From positions 1 through 32,641 of the IMG/VR virus record IMGVR_UViG_3300044657_000862: a stretch of DNA of 32,641 bases. One strand, 5' to 3'. This stretch comes from a virus (taxonomy: Duplodnaviria; Caudoviricetes). Positions 21,424 through 32,208 of this stretch are shown here, piece after piece; position 1 is the stretch's first letter, and each line of letters begins with the position of its first letter. The notes beneath the pieces were generated by a model. That model saw only the letters and a list, made by a program, of their open reading frames with translations, did not search any database and was not told the DNA's origin. The position numbers and the translations under genes are program-made.

Positions 21424-21810
21424 CTACGAAAACAACCTGTGGAGCGAGTTTTTCACCGCATACACAAAGCCATCCTCGCGGCGCTGCCGGGGGCGGTAGC
21501 ACTTCGCATGATGCGCCTCGCAGTACGGACTGCTCACCTTCACAAGGTCGCCGCAGAACTTGAACTCCGGATCGCCGACAGCGCCAATCGGATATTGGCA
21601 ATGCCGAAAGTCCGGCGTCTCAATATCGCGGTACGGCGGGCGATAAACTTCAACAGGCGACGTGCTGTTAGGATGCTCAAGGCCGAGCCTGCCCGCCTTA
21701 CCAATAACCTGATTCTTCGTCATCCCAAGTTCAGCCGCGATGCGGCGCGTCGGCATTCCAAGCGCATACAATTCGCGCAGGACCGCGATATTCTTTTCAT
21801 TCCACGCCAT
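21424..21810 (-). CDS. gcrA: GcrA-like cell-cycle regulator / sigma70 cofactor
   Basis: N-terminal W....I..LRELY..G.....IAAELG.TKNQVIGKA.RLGL and C-terminal C.YPIG....PEF.FCG......SPYC..H...Y, both GcrA hallmarks. Start at ATG 21810. Confidence 0.88.
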   Translation of the reverse strand: MAWNEKNIAVLRELYALGMPTRRIAAELGMTKNQVIGKAGRLGLEHPNSTSPVEVYRPPYRDIETPDFRHCQYPIGAVGDPEFKFCGDLVKVSSPYCEAHHAKCYRPRQRREDGFVYAVKNSLHRLFS

Positions 21811-22081
21811 CGTCTTCACCCTTCGCACATTCAGAGCCGGTCGCTGCATACCCGGCAAGGTCCACCCAGCTATCCTGATGATCCGGCGTTGCGGCCAGCC
21901 GGGCCAGCTTTAACGCCGCCATCATCATTGCAACCTGCGGCGCGCTAATCGACACCCCGAGCAGTATTGTCCACATGGCAGCAATGCGCTCGTGATTATC
22001 ACGGACACTGCCATACACTGCTCCGCGATCTGTCATGACAGCACGCGCTGCGGTCAGCAATTCAAACCGATTCATCGTCAT
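21797..22081 (-). CDS. DUF6378-like phage protein
   Basis: DRG..YG....NH.RIA..W, V..MM..LK.AR and H.DSW.D.AGYAA. The start at 22081 overlaps the upstream stop. Confidence 0.8.
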   Translation of the reverse strand: MTMNRFELLTAARAVMTDRGAVYGSVRDNHERIAAMWTILLGVSISAPQVAMMMAALKLARLAATPDHQDSWVDLAGYAATGSECAKGEDDGVE

Positions 22082-22293
22082 CGCGTCGCCTCTATCCGCT
22101 TGCCTGTTGTGTCGTGCTTCATATCCCCCGCGCGTAGCCGCGTCAGGATGGCATTGCCTGTTATAACGTCGTACCAATCTGGATCGTGCAAGCTTGCAAA
22201 CGTGTGCCCCCATATGTGGCCGGAAACGGGCATACCGTTGCGGTGCACTGTTACCGGATCACCTAATGTAAAATTAGTTATGCTATTTTTCAT
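22078..22293 (-). CDS. Hypothetical protein (71 aa, SH3-like pattern)
   Basis: GGAGGGG SD and ATGA overlaps at both ends. F.LGDPV.V motif. Confidence 0.65.
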   Translation of the reverse strand: MKNSITNFTLGDPVTVHRNGMPVSGHIWGHTFASLHDPDWYDVITGNAILTRLRAGDMKHDTTGKRIEATR

Positions 22294-22722: not shown

Positions 22723-22974
22723 TCATCCGTGGCCAAAGCCTCCCCCGTCACCGTAACCGTATCCGGAACCCTCGCCGGAACCGTCACCGTCACCGTCACC
22801 GTCACCGTCACCGTAACCGTCGCCTTCACCGTCGCCGTAGCCGGAGCCGGAGCCGTCACCGTCACCGTCACCATAGCCGGAGCCGTAACTGTAGCCGGAG
22901 CCGTAACTGTAGCCGGAGCCGTAACTGTAGCCGGAGCCGGAGCCAGAGCCAGAGCCGTCGCCGTCATGCTTCAT
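22723..22974 (-). CDS. Glycine-rich (Gly-X)n low-complexity protein (83 aa; X = D, S, Y, E)
   Basis: GGAGG SD 9 nt upstream of ATG 22974. Almost every second residue is Gly. It overlaps the end of the DUF6948-like gene. Confidence 0.65.
   Translation of the reverse strand: MKHDGDGSGSGSGSGYSYGSGYSYGSGYSYGSGYGDGDGDGSGSGYGDGEGDGYGDGDGDGDGDGSGEGSGYGYGDGGGFGHG
22744..22965. repeat. Hexamer-based tandem repeat with an exact 18-nt unit
   Basis: Runs of ACCGTC and GCCGGA. TAGCCGGAGCCGTAACTG occurs three times exactly (22874-22927), plus a partial copy. Confidence 0.9.
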
Positions 22975-23329
22975 GGCTTTTGGCCTCCATAATTGACTTC
23001 TGTGCGGCTGAGCTGCACATGATGATTTCGCAATTCTCGGTCAATTCGATTCCGACCGGGCACCCTACTTTGCTCTCAGAATGCAGACCCTCAGAAGCCA
23101 CGCCAGACAAAAACGCTGCACCGTTCGCAGGCTTCCAGTACCAAAGCCTCCTGGCGTCTTTAAGAACGCAATTCCGCCCTGATGCCGAAACAAGAACTCC
23201 TGCATGAACGCCCGCGTCTCTGCACCTGACAATCACGTATTTACCAATGAACGGGCTTTCTGTCTTTTCTTCACCGAGCGCTGCCGCAATTCGTTTGATG
23301 TCGCCTAGTGTCATCGAATCAAAATCCAT
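22964..23329 (-). CDS. DUF6948-like phage protein
   Basis: IGKYVIVR...AGVH.G.L, L..ARRLWYW and LS.VA..G match the family as recalled. GGAGA SD upstream. Confidence 0.75.
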   Translation of the reverse strand: MDFDSMTLGDIKRIAAALGEEKTESPFIGKYVIVRCRDAGVHAGVLVSASGRNCVLKDARRLWYWKPANGAAFLSGVASEGLHSESKVGCPVGIELTENCEIIMCSSAAQKSIMEAKSHEA

Positions 23330-29277: not shown

Positions 29278-29496
29278 ATGATGGACATGATCGAAAGGGT
29301 GGCGCGGGCGATTGCCGCGAATTTTGGCGTTGACCCTGATGTCCCGCATTTCACGCTTTCAGAATCTACGCTGCTCGCTTGGCAGCAATTTGAGGGCGCA
29401 GCAAAAGATGTTCTGGAGGCCATGCGTGATCCGAGTAAGGCGATGAAAGATGCCGGTGGGTCGATCATCGAAAAGGCGCTGGAGGACGGCAAATGA
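29278..29496 (+). CDS. Hypothetical protein (72 aa)
   Basis: GGAGGAGG SD and M.ERVARAI ... A...LEAMR.P...M..AG pattern. ATGA overlap with the next gene. Confidence 0.75.
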   Translation: MMDMIERVARAIAANFGVDPDVPHFTLSESTLLAWQQFEGAAKDVLEAMRDPSKAMKDAGGSIIEKALEDGK

Positions 29497-30248
29497 CCAT
29501 CACAGAGGCGAAGCGGGTGGTTTGTTGGTTTTCGGCGGGTGCTGCCAGCGCGGTTGCCACCAAGCTAACCTTGGCAAGCGGGCGAAACGAGGAAATTGTT
29601 GTCGCGCGATGTGCAACCGGGGCGGAACACGAAGACAACGACCGTTTCGAGAAAGATTGCGCAAAATGGTTTGGCGTTCCAGTCGTCACCATCAAATCGG
29701 ATAAATATGCCGATGTCTGGGACGTATGGGAAAAGCGCAAATACATTGCTGGAATAGCAGGCGCACCATGCACAATGGAAATGAAGGTAGGGCCAAGGCT
29801 GGATTTTCAGCGGGTCGATGATGTCCATGTTTTCGGGTACACAGCAGATGCAGAAGACGTGCGGCGTGCGGAACGGTTGCGGGAAACATTTTTCGAACTG
29901 ACCATAGAAACGCCGCTCATCGACCGAGGCATAACGAAGGCGGGTTGCCTTGATATGATCGGCAGGGCAGGAATAGCGCCCCCGCTGACCTACGCTCTGG
30001 GCTTCCCAAATGCAAACTGCATACCGTGCGGCAAGTCAACGTCGCCAAATTACCTTGCGCTGGTGAGGCTGCATTTTCCGGATAAATTCGAACGGTATGC
30101 TGCGCTATGCCGGGAACTGGGGACCCGGCCCATCAGGCTGAACGGTGTGCGGATATTTCCTGACGAAATACCGCATGACCAGCCCACGACCGAGGCCATA
30201 GTGCCGTCGTGCGATTTTTTGTGTGCCATTGCGGAGCAGGATCTATGA
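29493..30248 (+). CDS. PAPS-reductase-like PP-loop protein with Cys motifs
   Basis: WFSAGAASAVA (PP-loop-like), EHEDN.RF, GAPCT..MK, FGYT..E..RA, Y.LGF.NANCI.C.K and SCDFLC. Confidence 0.8.
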   Translation: MTITEAKRVVCWFSAGAASAVATKLTLASGRNEEIVVARCATGAEHEDNDRFEKDCAKWFGVPVVTIKSDKYADVWDVWEKRKYIAGIAGAPCTMEMKVGPRLDFQRVDDVHVFGYTADAEDVRRAERLRETFFELTIETPLIDRGITKAGCLDMIGRAGIAPPLTYALGFPNANCIPCGKSTSPNYLALVRLHFPDKFERYAALCRELGTRPIRLNGVRIFPDEIPHDQPTTEAIVPSCDFLCAIAEQDL

Positions 30249-30472: not shown

Positions 30473-31504
30473 ATGACAGCCTATTACAATGAAATTGACC
30501 CCTTCGCGGCGCAATGGCTGCGGGAACTGATCAAGGCGGGGCGTATCGCCCACGGTGACGTGGACGAAAGAAGCATAGAGGACGTGCAGGCCGATGACCT
30601 TAAAGAATACACCCAGTGCCATTTCTTCGCCGGAATCGGCGGATGGTCCCTCGCACTCAGGTTTGCCGGATGGCCAGACAATAGACCTGTTTGGACAGGA
30701 AGTTGTCCATGCCAGCCCTTTAGCAGCGCCGGAAAACAAGGCGGAAGCGATGACGAGCGGCATCTCTGGCCTGTCTGGTTTCGGCTCATCCGCGAGTGTG
30801 GTGTTAACACAGTCCTTGGCGAACAGGTTGAAGGTGCGGTTGGGTTCGGATGGCTCGACAGAGTATTCGCAGACCTGGAAGATGAAAATTACGCCTGCGG
30901 GGCGGCGGTACTGGGCGCACATAGCGTCGGCGCGCCGCACATCCGACAGCGACTATGGTGGGTGGCCGACTCCAGCGGCGAGCGACGAGCGGCATGGGGT
31001 GAAACAGAAAACAGCCGAGATGAAATTACAGACAGGCCGCAGAAAGTCGGGGGCGAAAATAGGCAGAAGTTTGGATGTCACGGCACTGATGGCAGGCTGG
31101 CCGACTTCAATGGCGGAATCCAAAGGGGAGAGAAACCGCATGACGGGGTATCTGGTAGGCAAGTCTGTCCCGCCGTCGGAAGTACACAAAACAGCGGGCT
31201 GGGCAACGCCAACAACTCGGGACTGGAAGGACACGGGGGACATGAGCGGCAGCATGACACGGAAGGACGGCAAGTTGCGGAACGACATCCTTGGGCGACA
31301 GGCGTGGCTATCGGGTGCGCAGACGGAAAGGCGAGGCTCATTGAACCCGGCATTGAGCCGCTGGCTCATGGGATACCCGCCAGAGTGGGACGATTGCGCG
31401 GTTATGGTAACGCCATCGTCCCGCAAGTAGCGGCGGCGTTCATAAACGCATACATGGACACGGCCCCAACAGATACCCCCAGCCCCTCAAGGTTTGCGCT
31501 TTGA
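30473..31504 (+). CDS. C5-cytosine DNA methyltransferase, alpha-chain-like
   Basis: Motif I HFFAGIGG, catalytic motif IV GSCPCQPFS, motif VI EQV, motif VIII HIRQRLW and motif X YGNAIVPQVA. No clear motif IX in this frame. Confidence 0.9.
   Translation: MTAYYNEIDPFAAQWLRELIKAGRIAHGDVDERSIEDVQADDLKEYTQCHFFAGIGGWSLALRFAGWPDNRPVWTGSCPCQPFSSAGKQGGSDDERHLWPVWFRLIRECGVNTVLGEQVEGAVGFGWLDRVFADLEDENYACGAAVLGAHSVGAPHIRQRLWWVADSSGERRAAWGETENSRDEITDRPQKVGGENRQKFGCHGTDGRLADFNGGIQRGEKPHDGVSGRQVCPAVGSTQNSGLGNANNSGLEGHGGHERQHDTEGRQVAERHPWATGVAIGCADGKARLIEPGIEPLAHGIPARVGRLRGYGNAIVPQVAAAFINAYMDTAPTDTPSPSRFAL
30594..31430 (+). CDS. Nested +1-frame ORF, methyltransferase beta-chain-like (TRD and motif IX)
   Basis: 278 open codons wholly inside the MTase gene, with WPTP-type repeats, TPTTRDWKD and a motif-IX-like GSLNPALSRWLMGYPPEW. 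The exact start is uncertain. Confidence 0.7.
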   Translation: MTLKNTPSAISSPESADGPSHSGLPDGQTIDLFGQEVVHASPLAAPENKAEAMTSGISGLSGFGSSASVVLTQSLANRLKVRLGSDGSTEYSQTWKMKITPAGRRYWAHIASARRTSDSDYGGWPTPAASDERHGVKQKTAEMKLQTGRRKSGAKIGRSLDVTALMAGWPTSMAESKGERNRMTGYLVGKSVPPSEVHKTAGWATPTTRDWKDTGDMSGSMTRKDGKLRNDILGRQAWLSGAQTERRGSLNPALSRWLMGYPPEWDDCAVMVTPSSRK

Positions 31505-31684
31505 TTTTTTCAATTGTTGAATTGCTAGCACGGCCATCCCTGGGATGGGCCATTCGCCTTTCTCCCAACGTCGAACTGTCCGTTCATTAGGGCCGGGATG
31601 ATTGCCAACCGAAAGCGCGTCGCATAGCGCGTTGACGCTCAGGCCCAGCGCGTGCCTATGGGCGCGGAATTCAAGGCCGGTCAT
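31487..31684 (-). CDS. XRE-family HTH protein (65 aa)
   Basis: MT..EFR..R..LGLS...L...L ... RTVRRWE.GE.PIP. The ATG at 31684 overlaps the upstream stop. Confidence 0.82.
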   Translation of the reverse strand: MTGLEFRAHRHALGLSVNALCDALSVGNHPGPNERTVRRWEKGEWPIPGMAVLAIQQLKKSKRKP

Positions 31685-31986
31685 GCTTCCACCTTTTTCA
31701 GGATGGCATTGATCCTGCGCGGATCGCCTGTGACACAAACCTGACGGCGCGGGTTGTCCCGGAAAAACTTGGCTGCGCGCTTTGCAGATGCCGCGCCACC
31801 GACATTGACGCCAAGCGTCTGGCCCCACTCACCGCGCGGCAGGATGTACCGCTTGAACCGGCGATAGCTGCCTTCCTCGAAGGCGTCGCTCGGAGCGACA
31901 AAACCGTTTTCCTTGATGATCTGCAAAGCGCGGATTTCAGATGCGCTGATATTGATGACCTTGCCGTTCAATGTGATCGTTTTCAT
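31681..31986 (-). CDS. Hypothetical basic protein (about 101 aa)
   Basis: AAGGA SD before ATG 31986, coupled to the HTH gene. Confidence 0.65.
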   Translation of the reverse strand: MKTITLNGKVINISASEIRALQIIKENGFVAPSDAFEEGSYRRFKRYILPRGEWGQTLGVNVGGAASAKRAAKFFRDNPRRQVCVTGDPRRINAILKKVEA

Positions 31987-32125: not shown

Positions 32126-32208
32126 GTGATCACCCAGGCCATAAAGGCCACCCCGAATATCAAAAAATAGCAGGCTGTGATGGCGAGGTATTCAAGTGCG
32201 CGTTTCAT
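32122..32208 (-). CDS. Small single-TM peptide, 28 aa (MKRALEYLAITACYFLIFGVAFMAWVIT)
   Basis: ATGA overlaps at both ends, AGGGG SD, a basic N-terminus and a hydrophobic helix. Confidence 0.6.
   Translation of the reverse strand: MKRALEYLAITACYFLIFGVAFMAWVIT

Follow-up and report, generated by a model that had tools for sequence, protein, structure and literature searches.

The window, as we call the whole 32,641-nucleotide stretch analyzed here (IMG/VR virus record IMGVR_UViG_3300044657_000862, Caudoviricetes), carries at positions 30473 to 31504 the gene for a DNA cytosine-5 (C5) methyltransferase body, termed alpha, within which a second chain, beta, is encoded in the +1 frame of the same strand. 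This nested frame, located inside the alpha gene in another frame, is kept by selection, and the central spacer of alpha is not conserved as protein while the same DNA is conserved in the beta frame. We consider it highly probable that the gene, open in two frames, specifies a two-chain C5 methyltransferase, and assign a probability of about 0.72 to a two-chain enzyme whose beta chain holds the recognition part. The repeated units of beta (WxTP modules) are plausibly target-recognition domains giving several specificities, a proposal that we hold at slightly better than even odds. A broader and more tentative picture, which we place just short of an even chance, is of a large family of phage and plasmid cytosine methylases whose specificity lies on a chain hidden out of frame: each WxTP module would read one target, modules would be traded plug-and-play among unrelated phages by way of short, conserved heads in the DNA, in-frame excision of a module (here module 1) would let one phage population turn a specificity off, and the same DNA would serve as the alpha spacer. 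The layout itself, of the M.EcoHK31I type, was already known; it is common in phages, and both frames are annotated in GenBank for K1ind2 and Diva. Added here are the conserved beta start near 30750, the module library evolving in the beta frame, a module-1 deletion seen in one contig, the predicted II-III-I-IV order of alpha, and the split and fused relatives.

The features of the gene pair, all on the plus strand, are given below. Motif invariance in alpha was judged over 66 aligned relatives, in which motifs I, IV, VI, VIII and X were invariant or nearly so.

30473..31504, plus: alpha, C5-cytosine DNA methyltransferase body of 343 aa with a disordered spacer at the usual place of the recognition domain (PF00145, E 3e-15; phrog_363, E 6.5e-80; model against M.HhaI)
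30473..30607, plus: alpha N-terminal strand-helix-strand-helix, predicted motifs II-III ahead of motif I (model alignment, secondary structure)
30594..31430, plus: beta open reading frame (ORF), +1 frame, 278 codons counted from the first ATG (phrog_1008, E 9.9e-23; stop map; shuffles)
30626..30643, plus: alpha motif I, FAGIGG (residues 52-57; F52, G54 and G56 invariant; aligns to HhaI 16-32)
30707..30715, plus: alpha motif IV, catalytic PCQ (79-81; invariant in 66/66)
30737..30752, plus: candidate internal ribosome-binding site AAGGCGG with 5-nt spacing and the putative beta ATG at 30750 (from sequence)
30750..31430, plus: conserved part of beta, 226 aa (stop map, shuffles)
30750..30962, plus: beta N-terminal arm (helix and beta-hairpin), sharing DNA with alpha motifs VI-VIII and predicted to serve in docking (stop counts, fold, contacts)
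30821..30829, plus: alpha motif VI, EQV (117-119) in place of ENV (invariant; aligned to HhaI ENV)
30938..30952, plus: alpha motif VIII, HIRQR (156-160; R158 and R160 invariant)
30963..31097, plus: beta module 1, 45 codons, without a close partner in the module library; an accompanying variant, seen as a 51-nt contig, lacks it with the frame preserved
31098..31199, plus: beta module 2, 34 codons, without a close partner in the module library
31200..31340, plus: beta module 3, a recurring type also found in L085, L047 and L007, and in L087/L088 with a differently built alpha
30963..30971 and 31098..31106, plus: copies 1 and 2 of the 9-bp direct repeat TGGCCGACT (module head), with the variant TGGGCAACG at 31200..31208; coincides with the deletion joint
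31341..31388, plus: beta motif-IX-like segment LNP....WLMGYPPEW (at least 90% conserved; predicted packing on alpha motif X; weak profile match to QGFP.EW)
31403..31423, plus: alpha motif X, YGNAIVP (311-317; G312 and N313 invariant)

The two ORFs (343 and 278 aa) had been named at these coordinates in the original prediction, made from the sequence alone, and both were recovered. Its account of the motifs also held: motifs I, IV, VI, VIII and X were located in alpha, no IX-like stretch was visible there, the +1 translation contains three W-x-T motifs and GSLNPALSRWLMGYPPEW, and the repeat copies were found at 30963, 31098 and 31200 as proposed. The IX-like segment conserved in beta was assigned by position and model, its sequence match being weak. 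The family phrog_1008, matched by beta, is itself labelled DNA methyltransferase.

Selection on both reading frames

An alpha query brought in 32 viral loci and a beta query 57; the window made the total 90, and alpha was complete in 79 of these. Truncation at the end of a contig accounts for 9 of the 11 loci left out; the other two are L049, complete and with a variant motif X, and L031, interrupted by an insertion. No locus was excluded because of a stop in the alpha spacer. The distribution of stops was mapped over 70 non-redundant genes (<90% identity; mean identity 52%). By this approach, the +1 frame was found to hold 165 stops over alpha codons 1-40, 31 over codons 41-97, none over 98-165, 1 over 166-270, 3 over 271-308 and 83 beyond; the +2 frame of the same genes held 155, 324 and 182 stops in the three middle regions (98-165, 166-270 and 271-308). 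Since loci found via beta are biased, the test was repeated on 26 non-redundant relatives found via alpha alone. The +1 stops in these numbered 0, 0 and 3 over the three middle regions compared to 55.8, 39.4 and 24.5 expected from synonymous shuffles (0 compared to 95 over codons 98-270), while codons 1-40 and the +2 frame were near shuffle expectation. When the window alpha was shuffled synonymously, the +1 frame was open over codons 98-308 in 0 of 200 shuffles. Homologues thus do not accumulate +1 stops, which the original prediction had named as a refuting outcome, and the suppression of synonymous variation for which it had proposed a test was detected: four-fold-site identity in alpha rose from 0.31-0.37 where the conserved overlap is absent to 0.60 over motifs VI-VIII, about a doubling, and to 0.89 beneath motif IX.

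Similar evidence was obtained within the modules. Pairs of modules of the same type (n = 243) were 0.61 identical in beta compared to 0.33 in alpha, and their mismatches peaked at the third beta codon position (0.325, 0.266 and 0.558 at positions 1, 2 and 3). The alpha frame across the modules held 0 stops compared to 363 expected in 66 loci. Residues G35 and W43 of beta were invariant across 130 beta rows.

The first 52 codons of the 278-codon beta ORF appear dispensable in some relatives, as indicated by the 31 stops over alpha codons 41-97 and none over 98-165. Several relatives have +1 stops before alpha codon 93, which places the portion of beta that is needed at or after 30750, and its conserved stretch is taken to begin near Met53 (30750); ATG, GTG or TTG was present at the equivalent of alpha codons 92-95 in 56 of the 68 listed relatives. 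Since the alpha F-D-D codons passively yield starts of the 30750 type and alpha codons 41-91 are also depleted of +1 stops (5 compared to 19.9 expected), many genes may start beta further upstream, as at 30594. Judged from the sequence, beta would be initiated internally at 30750, or at 30594. Beta of EcoHK31I can likewise do without its first 42 residues, and internal methionines are used as starts (PMC2836561).

Predicted fold and association of the two chains

The alpha model aligned to M.HhaI with Z 16.6 and a root-mean-square deviation of 2.8 over 183 aligned residues, consistent with a large domain of the HhaI type. The model was confident for residues 1-170 and the C-terminal helices and disordered over 191-270 (predicted local distance difference test, pLDDT, <50), in agreement with the earlier view that the variable region of alpha is unstructured. 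By structural alignment, residue 1 of the alpha model was placed on HhaI 34, HaeIII 23 and DNMT1 1162-1165, the strand that follows motif I in those enzymes. Just six residues lie between the helix after motif I and the motif IV strand, leaving no room for HhaI 33-73 between alpha 66 and 73. The motif order of alpha is predicted from the model to be II-III-I-IV-VI-VIII-spacer-X rather than the canonical I-II-III-IV, following the numbering of HhaI motifs II and III. The permutation rests on the model, as a profile of alpha 1-46 had its best stretch on motif II in four of six canonical-order targets, none of them significant. Diva, Zerg and other nested relatives have the canonical order; therefore, nesting and permutation are separate traits.

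When alpha and beta were folded together, a co-fold score of 0.91 was obtained, compared to 0.00 for the best of three controls. Of 157 solved pairs 116 attain this mark, as do 2 of 215 mismatched ones, a calibration that applies only roughly here since our own alignments were supplied. The runs share at least 81% of contacts, with a partner pLDDT of at least 64. In the co-fold, beta 203-209 (numbered from 30750) contacts alpha 308-318 and 154-156, the LMGY of beta packs against motif X and the motif-VIII loop of alpha, and the beta arm packs against the sheet edge and last helix. As a prediction, this model supports association of the chains. Taken together, selection on two frames, the predicted packing of IX on X and the lack of a restriction-enzyme match in the scanned proteins support the alpha/beta reading modelled on EcoHK31I that had first been suggested for this gene.

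Beta modelled alone gave a predicted template-modelling score of 0.30, and its best fold match (Z 3.7) was uninformative. A beta profile had no match among solved sequences at E up to 10, Pfam had no family for the window beta and no consistent family among the 130 beta rows, and no match for beta was detected with NCBIfam and PADLOC.

Modules of the beta chain

Between the arm and motif IX, beta is a string of units with the head W-x-T-P and often L..AG at the end, three of which are present in the window. A total of 168 modules was counted in 67 loci, at 1 to 6 per gene and in 57 architectures, with recurring types at differing positions; 14 of the 67 loci have single-module genes, and the beta chains of P0123 and P0126 have about 12 and about 9 modules, respectively. 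Repetition of one type within a gene was found in 1 locus compared to 6.3 expected (P 0.0045). On a quick FastTree tree of alpha 1-166 (166 columns, a weak tree), 65 changes were counted for 12 types with 76 carriers. A module-head matrix without W1 and P4 found two sites in the variable region of the SPR-like methylase L102, the top match being equalled in 0 of 300 shuffles. None of the solved recognition domains matched the modules. The repeat pattern occurs 7 times in the window compared to 2.67 expected; because this window-wide enrichment is only mild, the repeat matters by position.

A recognition role is suggested by the position of the modules between motifs VIII and IX, their diversity and the partial resemblance of their heads to the SPR-like methylase. 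The modular idea gains indirect support from the shuffled library, the evolution of modules in the beta frame, the VIII-IX position and a natural in-frame deletion. This deletion was found in run X1, which holds contigs identical to the window over 30942-31127 (depth 126.7, including module 1) and 31098-31387 (depth 175.1). A 51-nt contig of the run, free of mismatches and at depth 52.2, connects 30962 directly to 31098; the nine letters at the joint, TGGCCGACT, fit either side. The deletion is of 135 nt, exactly module 1, and is in frame for both alpha and beta. The breakpoints and summed depths fit an assembly bubble with about 29% lacking module 1. Runs X2, X8 and X11 yielded only conserved patches of relatives. 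A further contig of run X1 (window 31662-31685) ends at 31685 and continues with letters that recur at about 32126-32148, a hint of another variant, or of a repeat, towards the right end.

Relatives, rival explanations and phage context

Beta matched 237 phage records and 3324 proteins, alpha matched 426 phage records, and 31 plasmid records were also matched. Open +1 betas were found in CarlMeissner, RcWhiteOak, Zerg and Diva, and in plasmids of Paenibacillus, Bacteroides, Sphingomonas and Acinetobacter. The GenBank records of K1ind2 (ORF29/ORF28) and Diva (gp49/gp50, 'g49 internal gene') annotate both nested coding sequences (CDS), and those of CarlMeissner, RcWhiteOak and Zerg the main frame alone, though the +1 frame is open. 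In L101 (Gordonia phage GordDuk1, 1306-2179) alpha ends after motif VIII, and an overlapping +1 frame holds one module, IX and X, possibly an intermediate layout. The Vibrio plasmid gene L103:1486-2730 is a single chain with I-VIII and X followed by a beta-like tail with an IX-like end, the match to IX being weak (E 0.006 in a six-sequence search). A canonical single-chain form, sought in longer proteins, gave 17 matches among 250 candidates, none with PF00145, which is weak evidence. Plasmid matches L091-L093 were rejected as nested pairs; they are instead NgoMIV-type single-chain enzymes and served as controls.

Several variations on the layout were also observed. An HNH-like endonuclease ORF lies in the +1 frame within the beta arm of L031:2160-3700 and P0124, and behind beta in P0137; in L031, alpha reads through the entire insertion free of stops and beta restarts after it. 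In P0130, P0133 and P0135, beta continues into downstream genes; these encode an N4/N6 methylase, which follows a second beta-like unit, as well as a Dam-type methylase and an SNF2 helicase. In L040, L045 and L062, beta extends about 200 codons beyond alpha motif X. On the Sphingomonas plasmid L096:950-2041, beta alone is annotated (as a hypothetical protein) and the catalytic alpha frame is unannotated. On the Paenibacillus plasmid L094:1267-2757, the motif-IX segment is duplicated in the +1 frame, with the second copy behind stop codons.

Among known enzymes, the pair most resembles M.EcoHK31I, originally described, reportedly, by Lee, Kam and Shaw in 1995. In this enzyme of E. coli HK31 (YGGCCR), the small chain with motif IX is encoded in another frame inside the large chain, as described in the available parts of PMC2836561 and PMC3404938. 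The two systems share a large chain with I-VIII and X, motif IX on a small chain nested wholly in another frame, and a small-chain N-terminus that is dispensable, with alternative starts; the likeness is one of layout, to the enzyme as published. Unlike M.EcoHK31I, the window pair is phage-borne with no restriction partner found, its alpha order is predicted to be permuted, and its beta belongs to a family with 1-6 (up to about 12, in P0123) exchangeable modules, whereas the EcoHK31I recognition domain is described as predicted in alpha; no such large-chain domain was found here, where the alpha spacer is disordered. The C5 methylases of Bacillus phages SPR, phi3T, rho11 and H2 have tandem recognition domains for several targets (PMC8936443, available part). 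Like these, beta has several short tandem modules between VIII and IX, with heads that resemble two L102 sites; unlike these single-frame, single-chain enzymes of tested specificity, the window's modules are on a second chain in an overlapping frame, and their specificities are putative. M.AquI is a two-chain enzyme with I-VIII on alpha and the distal variable region and IX-X on beta (PMC3404938, in part). It shares a natural split after VIII, a division also seen in GordDuk1; unlike it, the window keeps X on alpha, and its genes are nested rather than consecutive. PHROG 363 (alpha) and PHROG 1008 (beta), and the nested CDS of K1ind2 and Diva, represent the same gene pair as annotation only. 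A search of the open-access literature, with subscription papers and REBASE outside its scope, brought up no publication that deals with beta chains of this nested and modular kind from phages, no functional study of the PHROG 363/1008 pair and nothing relevant on 'Mte8' or the Diva internal gene. The nested chain is unmentioned in the available main-text parts of PMC3025963, PMC11990801, PMC8594841, PMC11954522 and PMC12707154.

In the mechanism we propose, alpha would be translated from 30473 and supply the S-adenosylmethionine pocket and catalytic cysteine, its middle being a disordered spacer that needs only to lack stops so that motif X is read. Beta would clamp alpha through its helix-hairpin arm and motif IX, and would offer the DNA a single one of its three WxTP modules at any moment, like the tandem domains of the multispecific Bacillus phage methylases. 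Modules would be gained, lost and swapped through recombination at conserved module-head DNA, with whole-codon lengths preserving both frames. The likely purpose would be methylation of replicating phage DNA at several sites, allowing some host restriction enzymes to be evaded.

Other explanations were weighed against this mechanism. A two-chain methylase might have a single relaxed specificity, its modules being tolerated repeats or DNA-backbone clamps of which one or none sets the target. The frequency of single-module genes is in keeping with this, as are the failure of solved recognition domains to match, a co-fold in which beta 132-159 is the sole part of the module region to be positioned (module 1 and most of module 2 being unplaced), and a module-1 deletion that, at about 29% of contig depth, is not lethal. 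Distinct types are, however, protein-conserved across distant phages, and duplication within a gene is rarer than chance, which fits selection for different functions; we regard a relaxed specificity as unlikely. Much less probable still is that alpha is active alone or on another substrate, with beta as a regulator, inhibitor or adaptor (for example, restraining a toxic non-specific methylase). Beta indeed has no Pfam family and any binding partner would co-fold too, but alpha lacks motif IX and an ordered recognition domain, the conserved segment of beta is predicted at the IX position, and GordDuk1 and the Vibrio gene carry this segment together with motif X on a single polypeptide.

We give slightly less credence again to a single polypeptide that arises through a pair of programmed frameshifts (+1 after VIII and back after IX); frameshifting between the two frames was an alternative already raised in the original prediction. 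Its net order, VIII-modules-IX-X, would be canonical, and the lack of a universal beta start codon is compatible with it. Such a product would read VI-VIII in the alpha frame, yet beta is constrained there, over alpha 98-165 and upstream of any shift, and so a frameshift is disfavoured. The alpha spacer, unneeded by a shifted product, is kept open; beta of L031 restarts past the stop that follows the inserted ORF; some betas continue into downstream enzymes; and EcoHK31I works from two separate genes (PMC2836561, in the part available). The least weight of all was given to a +1 frame that passively shadows the alpha codons or results from an assembly artefact. High G+C frames may stay open by chance, and alpha W127 forces beta G35; this explanation was nonetheless refuted by the shuffles, the codon-position pattern, the many +1 stops of the control methylases L091-L093 and the run X1 contigs identical to 30942-31387.

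Several observations weigh against a two-chain enzyme with modular recognition in beta. One relative (L063) has a stop within beta and an intact alpha, beta ends a few codons early in L004 and L019, and 12 of the 68 listed relatives lack a start codon at the equivalent of 30750. The module clusters were built on beta, which favours beta identity, and the largest cluster chains several types. The co-fold shows likeness rather than binding, because the two parts of a split enzyme can reach the mark through resemblance to solved methylases, and one contact patch, of beta 55-57 with alpha 145-147, is near the shared-DNA register. The module-head matrix missed the recognition region of both NgoMIV-type methylases (2/2) and of the fused Vibrio gene (P 0.48, 0.51 and 0.17), and the M.EcoHK31I recognition domain is placed by prediction in alpha, not beta (available parts of PMC2836561 and PMC3404938). 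The deletion is seen in one contig with 30 letters per side, one short of the bridging rule, and may be an amplification artefact; run X1 may also be the source of the window. With regard to purpose, palindromic hexamers are strongly avoided in the window (1-32641), with 245 seen compared to 522 expected and 16 of 64 absent, and Kagunaviruses, of which Bas72 and Bas76 carry the window's methylase gene family, are described as highly sensitive to restriction systems in the available part of PMC11990801. Broad anti-restriction is therefore not evident. CCGG and GCGC are not avoided in the window. Any protection may extend to no more than a few cytosine-blocked sites. For a different family of phages, methylase genes were reported to bear no simple relation to resistance (PMC8594841).

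If the proposed mechanism is true, a layout regarded as a one-enzyme curiosity would prove to be how a very common family of phage methylases is usually built, in which annotation misses the chain that sets specificity, and the poor prediction of restriction resistance from methylase genes alone would be explained. The family would also provide a natural library of small recognition modules that could be mapped one by one to targets, and a clean case of protein-module shuffling under dual-coding constraint. The natural module-1 deletion offers a ready-made test pair.

The window itself is a 32.6-kb virus record with podovirus-like structural genes and a primase-helicase. No endonuclease family was detected among the 44 window ORFs scanned with PHROGs or the 10 scanned with PADLOC, in a record that is 94% complete and has further ORFs without an assignment. 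Just upstream of the methylase, a PAPS-reductase-like gene (29493-30248; phrog_424, with a weak PADLOC match to SspD) may encode a second DNA-modification or cofactor enzyme. Two ORFs on the minus strand, 21797-22213 and 22964-23329, match phrog_474 and phrog_18306 and lie opposite unassigned plus-strand ORFs in the 21-25 kb region.
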